Below, one piece after another: positions 25,570 to 34,134 of a stretch of 64,000 bases of DNA; the first letter of the stretch is position 1; each line of letters opens with the position of its first letter. The notes beneath the pieces were generated by a model. That model did not search any database. It saw nothing but the letters and a program-made list of their open reading frames with translations, and was not told where the DNA came from. The translations under genes were made by a program, and so were the position numbers. The stretch is from assembly GCF_056746865.1 (NCBI RefSeq), contig NZ_CM163382.1, one strand, 5' to 3'.

Positions 25570-25790
25570 CTTAGGAGTGGCGGCATATAGCCAAAATAAC
25601 GTGAGCGGGTCCATGCCCGACAGAATCGTTACTCTCTCCCATCCGGACTCTAACCGTCGGCCCCGGAATTACACCGGATCTGCTGTCCTTTGAGTTCGCA
25701 CCCAAAGCGCTCGCGGGCTTTCAACTGAGTTGATTTACCGCCGGTGGGGAATTTCGCCCCGCCCTGAGAATAAGCGGATTCACTATAACG
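25570..25790 (-). ncRNA. sroG: FMN riboswitch (RFN element, sroG) in ribB 5' leader
   Basis: Minus-strand sequence contains conserved aptamer blocks CAGATCCGGTGTAATTCCGGGGCCGACGGTTAGAGTCCGGATGGGAGAGAGTAACG upstream of ribB. Confidence 0.8.
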
Positions 25791-25896: not shown

Positions 25897-26196
25897 ATGA
25901 TTGACCCGAAAAAAATTGAGCAAATCGCTCGCCAGGTTCACGAATCAATGCCTAAAGGAATCAGGGAGTTCGGGGAAGATGTGGAGAAAAAAATCCGCCA
26001 AACCCTACAAGCGCAACTGACGCGTCTCGATCTGGTGAGCCGCGAAGAATTCGACGTACAGACGCAAGTCCTGTTACGGACTCGTGAGAAACTGGCATTA
26101 CTGGAGCAGCGCATCAGTGAACTGGAAGCGCGCAATAATTCGGTAGCAGATCTTCAATCTCCTCCGGCTATCCCGCCTATTGATAAAGCAGAATAA
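25897..26196 (+). CDS. ubiK: Ubiquinone biosynthesis accessory factor UbiK (YqiC)
   Basis: ORF trimmed to [21 protein letters not shown]; coiled-coil small protein. Confidence 0.85.
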
Positions 26197-26204
26197 AGCA
26201 ACAC

Positions 26205-26431: not shown

Positions 26432-26699
26432 AAGCACATCCTCCGGTTATCGCATACCTTTTAAGGCCATATGCTTTTTCTGATTTCAGTATTCCCCAAT
26501 CAGTGTAGTGCCTTTAAACATAACGTGCGTAAATATATTGTCCCCGATCACACTTTTTAGTGAAAAATAAAAAACCATATTAAAAGACTTTCTCTTCCAG
26601 AACTTCTCTAACATGTGTTATTATTAACAAAGATAAATGTAAGCAAGGAAACTATCCTAAAGTAAATATTGCGTCACTAAATGGACATTGGAGTGACAT

Positions 26700-27329
26700 A
26701 TGATTTTATTCGCCGACTATAACACCCCTTATCTTTTCGCTATTTCCTTTGTACTGTTGATCGGCCTTTTAGAAATTTTTGCGCTTATCTGCGGTCATAT
26801 GCTCTCCGGTGCTCTTGATGCACATCTTGACCATTATGATTCCATAACCACAGGTCATATTAGCCAGGCACTTCATTATCTCAATATCGGAAGATTGCCA
26901 GCTCTCGTCGTTCTCTGCTTACTGGCTGGTTTTTTTGGTCTTATTGGCATCCTGTTGCAGCATACCTGCATCATGGTCTGGCAATCACCACTCTCGAACC
27001 TGTTCGTGGTTCCTGTCAGTTTACTGTTTACGATTATTGCGGTGCATTATACCGGTAAAATAGTTGCGCCCTGGATTCCACGCGACCATAGTTCAGCTAT
27101 TACAGAAGAAGAATATATTGGTAGCATGGCGTTAATTACCGGACATCAAGCGACTTCAGGTAATCCCTGCGAAGGAAAACTCACCGATCAATTTGGCCAA
27201 ATACATTATTTACTACTGGAGCCTGAAGAAGGAAAAATTTTCACTAAAGGAGACAAAGTGTTAATTATTTGCCGACTTTCTGCAACGCGATATTTGGCGG
27301 AAAACAATCCCTGGCCCCAAATATTGTAA
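26700..27329 (+). CDS. yqiJ: NfeD-like inner membrane protein YqiJ
   Basis: 209 aa; membrane N-terminal half plus soluble C-terminal OB-like domain; upstream of SPFH gene. Confidence 0.8.
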
Positions 27330-27355
27330 TTTATTAATCAAAAGGAAATTTAATA

Positions 27356-29017
27356 ATGGATGATATTGTTAATTCTGTGCCCTCCTGGATGTTTACCGCA
27401 ATTATTGCCGTATGCATTCTGTTTATTATTGGAATTATTTTCGCCAGGCTCTATCGTCGCGCTTCGGCAGAGCAAGCTTTTGTTCGTACTGGTTTAGGTG
27501 GGCAAAAAGTGGTAATGAGCGGTGGCGCAATCGTGATGCCGATCTTTCATGAAATAATCCCCATCAATATGAATACCCTGAAGCTGGAAGTCAGCCGCTC
27601 AACCATTGATAGCCTGATTACGAAAGATCGTATGCGCGTCGATGTCGTGGTCGCTTTCTTTGTGCGGGTAAAACCTTCAGTTGAAGGGATTGCCACCGCC
27701 GCCCAGACGCTGGGACAACGCACCCTGTCGCCTGAAGACTTACGTATGTTGGTTGAAGATAAATTTGTCGATGCCCTCCGTGCAACAGCTGCACAAATGA
27801 CCATGCATGAGTTACAGGATACCCGCGAGAACTTCGTGCAGGGAGTACAAAATACCGTAGCTGAAGATCTGTCGAAAAACGGCCTGGAACTGGAAAGCGT
27901 TTCACTTACCAACTTTAACCAGACGTCGAAAGAACATTTCAATCCTAACAACGCCTTTGACGCCGAAGGTTTAACCAAGCTGACGCAGGAGACGGAGCGC
28001 CGTCGTCGCGAACGTAACGAAGTTGAACAGGATGTAGAAGTTGCGGTGCGTGAGAAAAACCGTGATGCGCTTTCGCGCAAGCTGGAGATTGAACAACAAG
28101 AAGCGTTTATGACGCTTGAGCAGGAGCAGCAGGTTAAAACCCGTACCGCTGAGCAGAATGCGAAAATTGCGGCTTTTGAGGCCGAGCGTCGTCGGGAAGC
28201 AGAGCAGACGCGAATTCTGGCTGAACGACAGATTCAGGAAACGGAAATCGACCGCGAACAGGCCGTCCGTTCCAGAAAAGTTGAAGCTGAACGTGAAGTT
28301 CGCATTAAAGAGATCGAACAGCAGCAGGTCACCGAAATCGCCAACCAGACGAAATCGATCGCTATTGCCGCCAAATCGGAACAGCAGTCACAAGCGGAAG
28401 CGCGTGCCAACCTTGCACTTGCAGAAGCGGTAAGCGCCCAGCAAAACGTTGAAACCACTCGCCAGACCGCAGAAGCCGATCGTGCTAAACAAGTTGCCCT
28501 AATCGCTGCCGCGCAGGACGCGGAAACCAAAGCAGTCGAACTGACCGTCCGGGCGAAAGCTGAAAAAGAAGCCGCAGAGATGCAGGCGGCGGCAATCGTT
28601 GAGTTAGCCGAAGCTACGCGTAAAAAGGGTCTGGCGGAAGCAGAAGCGCAACGTGCGCTGAACGACGCTATCAACGTACTTTCTGACGAGCAAACCAGCC
28701 TTAAATTCAAACTGGCGCTATTACAATCATTACCTGCGGTAATAGAGAAATCCGTTGAGCCGATGAAGTCCATTGACGGCATCAAGATTATTCAGGTCGA
28801 TGGATTAAACCGAGGTGGCGCTGCGGGGAATGCGGCATCAGGCAGCGTTAGTGGCGGAAACCTGGCAGAACAGGCATTGTCTGCCGCCCTTTCTTACCGC
28901 ACACAGGCACCACTGATTGACTCCTTGCTCAATGAAATCGGTGTTTCTGGCGGCTCGCTGGCGGCATTGACTTCACCCTTAACATCAACAACTCCCGTCG
29001 AAGAAAAAACAGAGTAA
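27356..29017 (+). CDS. yqiK: SPFH/band-7 (flotillin-like) protein YqiK
   Basis: 553 aa; N-terminal TM, SPFH domain then long charged coiled-coil (EQ/AE/K rich). Confidence 0.85.
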   Translation: MDDIVNSVPSWMFTAIIAVCILFIIGIIFARLYRRASAEQAFVRTGLGGQKVVMSGGAIVMPIFHEIIPINMNTLKLEVSRSTIDSLITKDRMRVDVVVAFFVRVKPSVEGIATAAQTLGQRTLSPEDLRMLVEDKFVDALRATAAQMTMHELQDTRENFVQGVQNTVAEDLSKNGLELESVSLTNFNQTSKEHFNPNNAFDAEGLTKLTQETERRRRERNEVEQDVEVAVREKNRDALSRKLEIEQQEAFMTLEQEQQVKTRTAEQNAKIAAFEAERRREAEQTRILAERQIQETEIDREQAVRSRKVEAEREVRIKEIEQQQVTEIANQTKSIAIAAKSEQQSQAEARANLALAEAVSAQQNVETTRQTAEADRAKQVALIAAAQDAETKAVELTVRAKAEKEAAEMQAAAIVELAEATRKKGLAEAEAQRALNDAINVLSDEQTSLKFKLALLQSLPAVIEKSVEPMKSIDGIKIIQVDGLNRGGAAGNAASGSVSGGNLAEQALSAALSYRTQAPLIDSLLNEIGVSGGSLAALTSPLTSTTPVEEKTE

Positions 29018-29204
29018 ACCCTCTTCTATGAATAATCCCTGGCCCAAAAAGCCGGGGATTTTTTATATCTGCGTTCCGCTAAAAGGTGCAAATGATCAGG
29101 CTGTTGCAGCATTTTGCGTGACCGCTCGGGGAAGGGAAAACTGCCTCTGGGAAAGCGTTGCGCGGGGTCTGGCGCTCATCAACAATCGGGGAGTCAGCAG
29201 GGGG

Positions 29205-29350
29205 CTGAAACGGGAAAGCCCCTCCCGAAGAAGGGGCCTTATAGAAGGAAAGGGTTATGATGAAGCTCGTCATCATACTGATTGTGTTGTTACTAGTAAG
29301 TTTCCAGGCTTATTAACAACCAATTCAGAGGGGGGAGAAATCCTCCCTTA
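29205..29350 (-). ncRNA. sibD: Sib antisense RNA (antitoxin to Ibs), copy 1; boundaries approximate
   Basis: Antisense to ibs ORF; GC hairpin GCCCCT-CCCGAAGA-AGGGGC at 29217-29240 fits a minus-strand terminator; boundaries inferred. Confidence 0.5.
29257..29316 (+). CDS. ibsD: Ibs-family type I toxin (19 aa hydrophobic peptide MMKLVIILIVLLLVSFQAY)
   Basis: ATG ATG AAG CTC GTC ATC ATA CTG... TAA; matches Ibs toxin family; located between yqiK and hldE as ibsD/ibsE are in E. coli. Confidence 0.7.
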   Translation: MMKLVIILIVLLLVSFQAY

Positions 29351-29582
29351 CCCTTGTTCCTTTACTTTAGGTTGAAAAAAAATCAGCGTCAAGAAGGTTT
29401 CTCTATCCCACATCCCTGGCCCAAAAAGCCGGGGATTTTTTATATCTGCGTTCCGCTAAAAGGTGCAAATGATCAGGCTGTTGCAGCATTTTGCGTGACG
29501 GCTCGGGGAAGGCAAAACTGCATCAGGGAAAGCATTGCGCGGGGTCTGGCGCTCATCAACAATCGGGGAGTCAGCAAGGGGC

Positions 29583-29727
29583 TGAAACGGGAAAGCCCCT
29601 CCCGAAGAAGGGGCCTTGTATAAGGAAAGGGTTATGATGAAGCTGGTCATCATACTGATTGTGTTGTTACTCGTAAGTTTCGCAGCTTATTAACAGCCAA
29701 TCAGAGGGGGGAGAAATCCTCCCTCAC
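29583..29727 (-). ncRNA. sibE: Sib antisense RNA, copy 2; boundaries approximate
   Basis: Antisense to second ibs ORF; same hairpin structure as copy 1. Confidence 0.5.
29634..29693 (+). CDS. ibsE: Ibs-family type I toxin (MMKLVIILIVLLLVSFAAY)
   Basis: Second copy of 19-codon hydrophobic ORF; differs from copy 1 by Q17A. Confidence 0.7.
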   Translation: MMKLVIILIVLLLVSFAAY

Positions 29728-29812
29728 CCTTGTTCCTTTACTTTAGGTTGAAAAAAAAACAGCGTCAATAGGCCTGCCAGGTTCGAAGCGAGATCTGTGA
29801 ACCGCTTTCCGG

Positions 29813-31293: not shown

Positions 31294-34134
31294 TCATTCT
31301 TCCACCAGCCACTTCTGCCAGCTTGCCCGCACCAGTTCACGCTCTGCGGTGAAGCAATCCTCCGACACATGGCCCGGCAATTCCTGTAATGCCAGATGAT
31401 GAAGTTCATCGCGCAGCGTCGTGTAAGCACGGGTCAGCGCCATCGCTTCCTGCTCTTCCATAATGTCGTTTTGCGCCAGTAGTTCCAGAATGCGCACGTT
31501 GTCTGACCAGCGCGTTAACTTCGGTTTTTCATGAGCGTAGCGCAACACCAGATATTGAGTAATAAATTCGATATCGGTAATTCCGCCTTCATCGGCTTTG
31601 ATATCAAAGCGATCGCGATGTTTATTGCCGAGATGGGCACGCATTTTCTCGCGCATTTCCCGCACTTCTGTTTGCAGGGTTTTGCCTTCGCGCGGCAGCG
31701 TCATAATCTCCCGGCGTACTGCGTCAAAGTGCGCGGTGAGCTGCGGATCGCCGTACACTACACGCGCACGCACCAGCGCCTGATGTTCCCACGTCCAGGC
31801 CTCGTTTTTCTGATAATCGGCAAACGCTTCTGCGGAGGTAACCAGCATTCCCGCCGCCCCGGACGGACGCAGTCTAGCATCCACTTCATACAAAATGCCG
31901 GAAGAGGTTCGCGTACTGAACAGATGCATAATGCGTTGCGCCAGACGCAGATAAAACTGTCGCCCGTCGATTTCCCGCTCGCCGTCAGTCATCGCATCCA
32001 TTGGGCAATCATGGAGGAAGATCAGGTCAAGATCGGAACTGTAGCCTAACTCCCAGCCGCCCAGCTTGCCGTAGCCGACCACCGCAAAACCACGCCCTTC
32101 GCGTTCGTTCAGGTGATTTGGCTTACCGTAGCGGACAACCATTTGAACCCACGCCTGCTGAACGACGGCATCTATCATAGCCTCCGCCAGCCAGGTTAAG
32201 TGATCGCTCACTTTCATTACCGGTAGCGTACCGGCGATATCCGCTGCCGCAATACGTAACAGTTGCGCCTGTTTGAACTGACGCAGCGCCTCAAGCTGTT
32301 GTTCTTCGTCATCTTCCGGCACGCGCAGCAAATACTGGCGCAGTTCATCACGGTAGGCATCCGTCGCCGTCGGCTGGTAGAGAGTGTTTGGATCGAGCAG
32401 TTCGTCCAGCAATAATGGATAACGCGCCAGTTGGCTGGCAATCATCGGCGATGCGGCACACAGAGAAATCAAATGTTTAAGCGCCGCGGGGAATTCACTG
32501 AGCAATTCTAAATAGGTGGTGCGGGTAACAATCCCCACCAGCAAGGCGGTAATGCGCGACAGCGTGACAGCAGCGTCTTCACGCGCACATACATCACTTA
32601 GCAGATGCGGCATCAGATGGTCGAGCACCTGACGCCCGCGCGGCCCAATAGTGCGCTTATCCAGCTCTTTGCGGAAATCAGCAATCAGCGTCAGCACCTG
32701 TTTGCGATCATCTTCGCTAAGATGCGCCAGCACTGGCGTAGTGTCATCTTCCTGCAACGCATCCTGCCACAGCTCACGCCACTGTTCCGACAGCGACTCT
32801 TCCTGAGTTTCGCTTTCGTCGTCGCCAATCAATTCATTAAACACCCGGCGCACATTGGTCATATGTACGGTCAGCGCCCCGGTCAGTTGCGGCCAGTCAG
32901 CAAAGTCCATCGCCCACGCCAGCCGCGCACGGTTAAGCTCATCAGAAGGAAGCGTCTGGGTTTGTTCGTCGTTAATACTTTGCAGCAGGTTTTCCAGACG
33001 CCGCAGGAACAGATACGCCACTCGCAATTGTTCAGCATCGTTTTCAGAAAGCAGATGCAGCGCGGCAATGGCGCTGAGCGTTGGCAGTAAAGAGCGCGAT
33101 TGCAGCGACGGTTCGCGCCCGCCGCGAATGAGCTGGAATACCTGGACGATAAATTCAATTTCGCGAATGCCACCCGCGCCAAGTTTGATGTTGTCGGTCA
33201 AACCACGTCGACGCACTTCGCGGGCAATCATCCCTTTCATATTGCGCAGCGACTGGATGACGCTGAAATCGATGTAACGGCGGAAAACAAACGGGCGCAG
33301 CATCGCACGCAACTCGTTAGCATAGACGCCTTCGCTATCGCCCATAATCCGCGCCTTGACCATCGCGTAACGCTCCCAGTCGCGCCCCTGCTCCTGGTAA
33401 TAATCTTCCAGCGCCGCAAAGCTCAGCACCAGCGGGCCACTTTCGCCAAACGGACGCAGCCGCATATCCACGCGATAGACGAAGCCATCCTGCGTTGGTT
33501 GATCCAGCACTTTAATCAGCCGCTGCCCCATGCGGGTAAAAAACTGCGCGTTATCCAGTTCCCGGCGTCCGCCCTGCGTACAACCATGTTCTGGCCAGGC
33601 AAAAATCAGATCGATATCTGAGGAGAAATTCAGTTCCCCACCGCCCAGCTTACCCATGCCTAAAATCAGCAGCGGTTGCGCTTCGCCCTGCGCATTGCAC
33701 GGCGTTCCCCACTCGCGGCAGCAAGCGTCATACAGCCAGTCACGCGCCGCAACAATCAGCGTCTCCGCCAGATGGCTGAGCTGCTGCAATATGCTCTCTT
33801 CAGTAACCAGTGCCAGCGTTTGCGCCCAGGCGATGCGCACCATAATGCGCCGCCGGAATAGCCGCAGTTCACGCATTAACCCGGCTTCGTCACTCACATT
33901 ACTGAGCGCCTCCTGCAACCAGGCAGCGTAATGCTGCCATTCGTCGGCCTGCGGCGGCTGGCTTTGCAGTTCCGTCAGCCACTCTGGATGCGCAATTACG
34001 CTGTCCTGCACAAAATCACTGAAAGTAAGTACTGACTTCGCCTGTGCGCTAAGTGATTCCTCGGCTAAAGGCTCTGGCAGCCGCTCAACAACGGTCTGCC
34101 AGTACTGCTGTAACGGTGAAGAGAGCGGCTTCAT
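31294..34134 (-). CDS. glnE: Glutamine synthetase adenylyltransferase/deadenylase
   Basis: ORF 31294..34338 trimmed to [21 protein letters not shown] giving 946 aa. Confidence 0.9.

Follow-up and report, generated by a model that had tools for sequence, protein, structure and literature searches.

The window analysed here is a stretch of 64,000 nucleotides from contig NZ_CM163382.1, and the subject of this text is a pair of genes on its + strand, yqiJ and yqiK. It is practically certain that these are the chromosomal yqiJK operon of Escherichia coli, encoding a flotillin-type SPFH scaffold, YqiK, and an NfeD-like membrane partner, YqiJ. That degree of confidence applies to identity and architecture alone. 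The full reading is that yqiJK is a single transcription unit for scaffold and partner, whose products would assemble a cage on the inner membrane. Taken as a whole, with the cage mechanism included, this reading is probable.

The open reading frames encode 209 amino acids (aa; 26700-27329) and 553 aa (27356-29017). An earlier note, made from the DNA letters, had named a yqiJ-yqiK pair at exactly these positions, and that identification holds: over 3.4 kb the region matches E. coli strain 2017C-4173W12 at 100% identity, and the annotation there gives the two genes as yqiJ and yqiK. For the note as a whole, the observation was partly confirmed and the interpretation partly supported. RefSeq describes the products as 'OB-fold-containing protein' (yqiJ) and 'flotillin family protein' (yqiK), both in 2017C-4173W12 and in K-12. 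The order of the locus is glgS, yqiJ-yqiK, two ibs toxin genes and then hldE. Of 5426 complete E. coli genomes, 5423 have the 3' two-thirds of yqiK, mostly at full length, and yqiJ-yqiK is therefore a core locus.

YqiK and its long helix

The gene and the parts of its product are as follows (TM, transmembrane; pLDDT, the confidence measure of the AlphaFold2 models).

27356..29017, + strand: yqiK coding sequence, 553 aa, flotillin-family SPFH protein (open reading frame, Pfam, RefSeq)
27377..27451, + strand: predicted N-terminal TM helix, codons 8-32, followed by basic RLYRR (AlphaFold2 and sequence)
27452..27922, + strand: SPFH (Band 7) alpha/beta domain, codons 33-189 (Pfam, pLDDT 96-98)
27953..28678, + strand: long continuous helix, codons 200-441 (242 aa), proposed cage-wall helix (AlphaFold2, composition)
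28685..28768, + strand: second helix, codons 444-471, proposed equivalent of the flotillin cap helix (AlphaFold2; inside the Flot match; conserved LKFKLALLQxLP)
28772..28861, + strand: conserved IDGIKIIQVDGL motif (candidate beta-strand of the oligomeric barrel) and variable Gly/Ser/Asn linker, codons 473-502
28862..28981, + strand: C-terminal helices, codons 503-542 (AlphaFold2 503-527 and 535-542, low to moderate confidence; conserved AEQALSAALSYR)

Two Pfam families match YqiK above their cut-offs. Band_7 (PF01145) covers residues 39-192 (E 1.9e-18, 67.6 bits against a cut-off of 23.6). Flot (PF15975) covers residues 406-530 with profile positions 1-124 of 124 (E 6.7e-40, 136.5 bits against a cut-off of 27). 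A single-sequence phmmer search of YqiK against the chains of the Protein Data Bank (PDB) returned nothing, and a family profile was needed. Its best PDB matches are flotillin-1, as 9bq2_B (E 7.9e-14) and 9l3g_A; flotillin-2 and stomatin are much weaker (stomatin E 9.5e-4). The SPFH part aligns with flotillin-1 residues 9-152, and a second aligned stretch runs from the helix through to the conserved 'LP...P...I..I.IV' C-terminal motif. The IDGIKIIQVDGL motif is kept in the aligned relatives and aligns with 'KITLVSSG' of flotillin-1; its pLDDT is below 50 in the monomer model.

This AlphaFold2 monomer model was built on a 58-sequence alignment. In a Foldseek search, its top four matches are the flotillin-1 and flotillin-2 chains of two cage structures (458-510 aligned columns, E 3.5e-15 to 6.4e-13). 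Below flotillin come the cages of prohibitin, stomatin, HflK/C, erlin, QmcA and vault, and the SPFH matches range from E 1e-15 to 1e-7. Among solved structures, flotillin is nearer to YqiK than stomatin, prohibitin or HflK/C are.

A reading of YqiK as an equivalog or orthologue of FloT was rejected, with a score of 90.6 bits for NCBIfam model NF058507 against a curated cut-off of 700. Judged by its sequence, YqiK is a member of the flotillin family (SPFH2), not a FloT orthologue.

The E/Q/A/K/R-rich stretch of YqiK spans residues 198-459. It is 262 aa long, free of Pro, has at most two Gly, and E, Q, A, K and R make up a fraction of 0.62. AlphaFold2 models a single helix at 200-441 (242 aa) and another at 444-471; residues 473-502, rich in Gly and Ser, have low confidence and lead to the C-terminal helices. 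The tail had first been put at roughly 300 aa; about 245-260 aa is nearer, going by the 262-aa stretch and the 242-aa modelled helix. It had also been called low in complexity, which is true to a mild degree: Shannon entropy over 40 residues is about 2.9-3.4 bits in the tail versus 3.5-3.8 in the SPFH part.

Within the helix, residues 200-335 are charged (D, E, K or R at 59 of 136 positions) and residues 336-441 are Ala-rich (31% Ala). At the switch between the two lies the only low-confidence stretch of the 242-residue helix, residues 331-348 (window about 28346-28399), with pLDDT 45-56. Because confidence is lost there, the helix may contain a hinge; these residues could also mark a change of register.

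Whether the tail is a coiled coil, as the earlier note had it, was examined with a simple Fourier test and a register scan rather than with a trained predictor of coiled coils. Over residues 200-450, the hydrophobic residues show no significant 3.5-residue periodicity. For V, I, L, M, F, W and Y, 544 of 1000 shuffles reach the observed power, and with Ala added this rises to 959 of 1000. Power near a period of 3.4-3.7 is at or under the shuffle mean. Good hydrophobic occupancy of the a and d positions (0.62-0.75 in 28-residue windows) occurs only in the Ala-rich segment, at about 335-460. The classical coiled-coil reading is therefore downgraded.

The helix is enriched (z 4.3) in opposite-charge pairs at i/i+3 and i/i+4, which have a density of 0.21-0.27 per residue; about 20% of its residues are bulky hydrophobics. 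With a pair density this low and this many bulky residues, the tail is not a pure ER/K single helix.

These numbers bear on the alternative that the tail is a rod: a two- or three-stranded heptad coiled coil, or an ER/K single alpha-helix, acting as a spacer that projects the C-terminal domain off the membrane. Such a rod would account for the high helix propensity, the richness in E, K, R and Q and the enriched charge pairs, and the a/d occupancy of the Ala-rich half fits it too. The absent periodicity and the departure from a pure ER/K composition argue the other way. So does the homologous helix of human flotillin, which by experiment is a barrel wall without heptads (PMC11260169). A rod is accordingly regarded as quite improbable.

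The human wall helix has 186 aa and packs side by side with its neighbours by charge-charge contacts (PMC11260169). For YqiK, the reading as a wall helix is supported by the lack of heptads, the enriched opposite-charge pairs, and a ratio of nonsynonymous to synonymous substitution (dN/dS) against K-12 of 0.013. Since this ratio is so low, the tail is not drifting filler.

The tail had further been described as unusually long. An exhaustive HMMER search over 1.84 billion cluster representatives gave 3374 YqiK relatives at E<=1e-3. Tail lengths were taken from the 121 of the best 150 matches that have at least 500 aa, and so describe the closest relatives by score only. Their median length is 573 aa (interquartile range, IQR, 555-595), and 77% are longer than the 553-aa YqiK. 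The equivalent stretch (Pro-free, at most two Gly) has a median of 234 aa (IQR 208-258), is at least as long as that of YqiK in 23% of cases, and has an EQAKR fraction of 0.60. These length and composition statistics mean that the tail is a family trait, not something peculiar to yqiK here.

The description does have grounds in comparison with structurally characterised SPFH proteins. Wall helices span 44-189 residues across the proteins modelled by Fu and MacKinnon, human flotillin having 186 (PMC11260169). Extended, a helix of 242 residues measures about 36 nm, versus 28 nm for 186 residues.

YqiJ and the proposed cage

The partner gene and its domains are these.

26700..27329, + strand: yqiJ coding sequence, 209 aa, NfeD-like inner membrane protein (open reading frame, Pfam, RefSeq)
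26715..27074, + strand: predicted YqiJ membrane domain, codons 6-125 (AlphaFold2; long hydrophobic helices 6-43, 66-94 and 100-125)
27114..27305, + strand: YqiJ C-terminal OB-fold domain, codons 139-202

YqiJ matches the Pfam families YqiJ_N (E 1.5e-15) and YqiJ_OB (E 1.7e-14). There is no NCBIfam model for it, and a single-sequence phmmer search against PDB chains found nothing, so that a fold search was needed. A Tetraspanin match of 19.1 bits in Pfam was dismissed as below the threshold of 32.1. The AlphaFold2 model, from a 25-sequence alignment, has a mean pLDDT of 77.9. Confidence is about 90 in helix 1 up to about residue 25 and in helices 2 and 3, low in the 44-65 loop, and good in the beta domain at 143-202.

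In the fold search, the C-terminal OB-fold resembles those of solved NfeD proteins. The three-helix N-terminal membrane region of the model agrees with the short-NfeD layout of PMC2636767, where such proteins typically have 140-150 aa; at 209 aa YqiJ is longer. Nuclear magnetic resonance chemical shifts of the YqiJ C-terminus support the predicted secondary structure (Hinderhofer et al. 2009, PMC2636767). Against K-12, dN/dS of yqiJ is 0.037.

The pairing of the two genes is repeated in a metagenomic relative, where a YqiJ_N gene stands directly upstream of a 39%-identical flotillin (locus L004 2032-5522, JGI metagenome 3300037333). In the same locus the YqiJ_N gene is immediately preceded by a gene of the TelA family, which abuts it. 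This hints at a link to envelope-stress modules as in the PSP survey (PMC11237479).

Many truncated forms of YqiJ are found in the protein database, in E. coli as well as Salmonella, with the N-terminal membrane domain only (P0032, P0051, P0119, P0120 and others). One of these, P0119, has 120 aa, comes from E. coli O145:H28 and is on 573 contigs. In Salmonella Enteritidis, survival in egg white was unaffected by a yqiJ frameshift (PMC6137255). It may be that the NfeD-like partner has been lost repeatedly while yqiK was retained.

In the proposed mechanism, the N-terminal helix of YqiK would anchor the protein in the inner membrane and leave the remainder in the cytoplasm; PMC10434171 and the positive-inside rule point to a cytoplasmic bulk. 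By analogy with solved relatives, YqiK oligomers would then form a ring or dome. The wall of the dome would be a side-by-side parallel barrel of helices of about 240 residues, held together mainly by charge pairs between subunits and not by heptad knobs-into-holes packing. Helix 444-471 and the conserved IKIIQV strand would close it. The E/Q/A/K/R-rich composition would be a requirement of the wall helix, and helix length would set the height of the cage. Such a cage would set a patch of the inner membrane apart as a microdomain, and would probably be larger than the human one.

YqiJ would share the membrane patch through its three TM helices, and its OB-fold would bind YqiK and promote or stabilise assembly. 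Physical interaction between NfeD and SPFH proteins is known for S. aureus FloA-NfeD (PMC11222466) and QmcA-YbbJ (PDB 8z5g), and may by analogy extend to YqiJ-YqiK. In S. aureus, the OB domain of NfeD binds the helical region of the flotillin and mediates oligomerisation (PMC11222466). YqiK expressed from a plasmid localises as puncta (PMC10434171).

The S. aureus pair has also given rise to a different model, in which small dimers act as a clamp or 'tentacle' holdase. Applied here, the OB-fold of YqiJ would bend the YqiK helix, making it a flexible arm able to hold unfolded membrane proteins with no use of ATP. For FloA-NfeD this was proposed from maps at 7.9-8.8 A and in-vitro stabilisation assays (PMC11222466). 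YqiJ has the same OB-fold, and the low-confidence residues 331-348 in mid-helix could be the hinge. The same study also saw ring-shaped multimers, and itself calls for structures at higher resolution to confirm its structural reading. The closest solved relatives of YqiK, flotillin-1/2, are closed 44-mer cages, and every high-resolution SPFH assembly among the Foldseek matches is a cage. YqiK furthermore belongs to the SPFH2 (flotillin) class, which PMC2636767 keeps apart from SPFH subfamilies such as SPFH5 (YqfA). A holdase arm is therefore considered unlikely for YqiK.

A number of points weigh against the cage reading. The cage, its stoichiometry and the YqiJ-YqiK contact are carried over from homologues (the human flotillin 44-mer, HflK/C and QmcA-YbbJ). 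Model confidence falls at residues 331-348 and 473-502. In one study a chromosomal YqiK-EGFP fusion was diffusely cytoplasmic (PMC1874593). Deletions of single SPFH genes, and of all four together, cause no growth defect, and the quadruple mutant shows no biofilm difference from wild type (PMC10434171).

The partnership also has its exceptions. An 897-aa relative of YqiK has no NfeD-like neighbour, and the 185-aa protein upstream of a 33%-identical flotillin does not match the YqiJ profile in hhalign. YqiJ shares only 10-14% sequence identity with NfeD OB domains. It has no match to Pfam NfeD (PF01957) at E<=0.01, and none of 25 family members has one at E<=10. The label 'NfeD-like', as used in the earlier note, is good for fold, membrane layout and gene order, but not for sequence family.

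Expression, composition and divergence

The following signals surround and separate the two genes.

26432..26699, no strand: AT-rich divergent spacer between glgS (-) and yqiJ (+), 34% GC
26513..26539, + strand: candidate sigma-70 yqiJK promoter, TTTAAA-15 nt-TATATT (exact match to the motif published in PMC3946193)
26690..26693, + strand: Shine-Dalgarno GGAG for yqiJ (sequence; 6-nt spacer to ATG)
27343..27346, + strand: Shine-Dalgarno AGGA for yqiK (sequence; within the 26-nt yqiJ-yqiK gap)
29034..29060, + strand: intrinsic terminator hairpin and T-run (17 nt past the yqiK stop; first element of the downstream ibs/sib repeat unit)

A simple sigma-70 consensus scan called no + strand promoter upstream of yqiJ; the weaker published motif was located afterwards. 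It occurs once in the window, and matches in none of 100 shuffles of the window. The terminator has a 10-pair stem with 6 G-C pairs, followed by TTTTATATCT. A terminator scan found no + strand site between yqiJ and yqiK (27329-27356). Same strand, a ribosome binding site for each gene, a gap of 26 nt, a terminator only after yqiK and the published promoter motif at 26513-26539 are the evidence that the pair is an operon. One transcript would run from the AT-rich promoter region, which is bound by H-NS in vitro in K-12, to the terminator at 29034-29060.

The terminator hairpin is supplied by the first of two tandem units of about 377 bp, 95-97% identical, at 29035-29768. This unit begins 18 nt past the yqiK stop, and the hairpin is repeated at 29412. 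Each unit holds a + strand reading frame for an Ibs type I toxin (29257-29316, MMKLVIILIVLLLVSFQAY; 29634-29693, MMKLVIILIVLLLVSFAAY) and, on the - strand, a SIB antisense RNA (at 29242-29392 in one unit and 29619-29768 in the other, 142-150 bits).

In K-12, the glgS-yqiJ spacer is bound by RpoD holoenzyme and by H-NS in genomic SELEX (systematic evolution of ligands by exponential enrichment; PMC3946193). This fits both the AT-richness of the spacer and the repeated finding of little or no native YqiK, which at native level is barely or not detectable (PMC10434171; PMC6788730). Low expression in the laboratory may plausibly come from H-NS occupying the promoter region. Hinderhofer et al. (2009) found no stress induction and no deletion phenotype for yqiJ-yqiK (PMC2636767). 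A role in motility and ampicillin resistance has been suggested (PMC10434171).

The pair had been described as AT-richer than its neighbours. A GC profile bears this out for yqiJ, at 42.5% GC and 39.5% at third codon positions (GC3), in the lowest 6.6% of same-length windows over the 64 kb. It holds for the spacer as well, whose 34% GC is in the lowest 1.7%. It does not hold for yqiK, which at 51.1% GC (GC3 50%, 38th percentile) equals the window mean of 51.2-51.3%. The helix-plus-tail portion of yqiK is even above average at 53.1%. Only in comparison with hldE and glnE, at 56%, is yqiK low. As to a genomic island, yqiJ and the spacer are AT-rich, but yqiK has average GC and the locus is in 5423 of 5426 E. 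coli genomes.

Compared with K-12, the yqiJK region is 94.7% identical in DNA over 3.4 kb. YqiJ differs by one amino acid and YqiK by eight, none of them in codons 1-195. Over the whole of yqiK there are 95 synonymous and 8 nonsynonymous codon differences, for a dN/dS of 0.029, compared to 0.013 in the long helix. Both genes are under strong purifying selection.

Five of the eight YqiK differences (D492N, N494A, T495S, N497S and G499S) fall at residues 492-499 (window 28829-28852). This is the Gly/Ser/Asn linker after IDGIKIIQVDGL, which is of low confidence in the model and variable in sequence and length in relatives.

One more alternative is that the operon is cryptic: horizontally acquired, silenced by H-NS, decaying and without current function, its AT-richness a mark of foreign origin. 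There is material for this view in the low GC and GC3 of yqiJ and the low GC of the spacer, which holds an H-NS site (PMC3946193). Native expression is very low, and deletion has no phenotype in standard conditions (PMC10434171, PMC6788730). Truncated YqiJ is common in databases, the Salmonella yqiJ pseudogene has no phenotype (PMC6137255), and the locus adjoins a variable fimbrial island and mobile ibs/sib repeats. Decay is however hard to square with dN/dS values of 0.037, 0.029 and 0.013 for yqiJ, yqiK and the helix, or with a mostly full-length yqiK in nearly every E. coli genome. The GC of yqiK equals the window mean, and the family is widespread, with its 3374 cluster representatives. 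This explanation is very improbable.

Synonymous divergence (dS) from K-12 is uneven and shifts sharply inside yqiK. For yqiJ it is 0.057 and for the SPFH part of yqiK 0.135; it climbs to 0.34 over the long helix and to 0.85-1.57 over codons 442-502, with hldE and glnE at 0.13-0.14. Over 27800-29017, identity is only 90-95% in about 4977 genomes; in a glnE control of the same length (32000-33217), every genome with a match reaches at least 95%. The sequence pattern suggests that yqiK is a mosaic in which recombination left a breakpoint near 27750-27800. Part of the synonymous divergence may come from weak codon bias, the gene being poorly expressed.

Surroundings, known systems and significance

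Between ubiK and glgS, K-12 carries a 6.6-kb ygiL-(IS2)-yqiG-yqiH-yqiI fimbrial operon, which the window strain lacks. About 72 nt replace it at the ubiK-glgS junction (window about 26128-26199). The window strain has ubiK annotated 3 codons longer, at 300 nt versus 291 nt in K-12. Upstream of ribB there is a flavin mononucleotide (FMN) riboswitch at 25627-25775 on the - strand (Rfam RF00050, 120.9 bits), also present in the RefSeq annotation. No PADLOC-DB protein family matched YqiJ or YqiK at E<=0.01, and a reading as an anti-phage defence system was dropped for lack of a match to either protein.

The locus is not new. The yqiJ-yqiK operon of E. coli K-12, described as SPFH2a/NfeD2 by Hinderhofer et al. 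(2009, PMC2636767), has the same genes, order and promoter motif, between glgS and the ibs/sib repeats. The window strain differs in lacking the adjacent ygiL-yqiGHI fimbrial operon, and is only 94.7% identical in DNA. The operon, its SPFH2/NfeD2 class and the absence of a clear phenotype are already published, and nothing here departs from that picture.

The human flotillin-1/flotillin-2 cage (PDB 9BQ2, 9L3G; PMC11260169) is alike in its SPFH domain, long non-heptad charged and Ala-rich helix, cap helix, beta-strand and C-terminal helix. It is anchored by lipid modification and a hydrophobic SPFH1 surface, whereas YqiK has a TM helix. It is also a hetero-pair with a helix of 186 aa, whereas YqiK is one gene with a modelled helix of 242 aa; identity is 17-20%. 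No NfeD-like partner like that of YqiK has been described in eukaryotes.

Among bacterial systems, Bacillus subtilis YuaF-YuaG (NfeD2-FloT) differs from yqiJK in that YqiK is below the FloT cut-off and the YqiJ and YuaF domains are about 10% identical. E. coli QmcA-YbbJ (PDB 8Z5G) and S. aureus FloA-NfeD are similar in having an SPFH protein and an NfeD partner in one operon. QmcA-YbbJ is a cage of 26 heterodimers, as cited in PMC13086221. QmcA is however of the stomatin type with a much shorter helix, and ranks 27 in Foldseek, below flotillin, prohibitin and stomatin. Its gene order is also reversed, with qmcA upstream of ybbJ (PMC10434171).

The useful outcome of this work is a set of corrections. 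The tail of YqiK is family-typical and non-heptad, and best read as an SPFH cage wall. AT-richness is limited to yqiJ and the H-NS-bound promoter region, and 'NfeD-like' applies at the level of fold, not of sequence.

Neither a structure nor a physiological role is on record for the E. coli flotillin. A more specific proposal is offered tentatively, as something that may well turn out otherwise. YqiK-family flotillins, with wall helices of about 235-260 residues, would build homo-oligomeric, TM-anchored cages with walls about 1.3 times those of any solved SPFH assembly. YqiJ would be an integral structural subunit, and the cage would be made only under a condition that relieves H-NS silencing. 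If true, no SPFH compartment known would be larger, and a single gene would offer a tractable model of how helix length sets cage size. The predicted YqiK wall helix is longer than that in any solved SPFH cage, which makes it a reasonable target for studying helix length against cage size.

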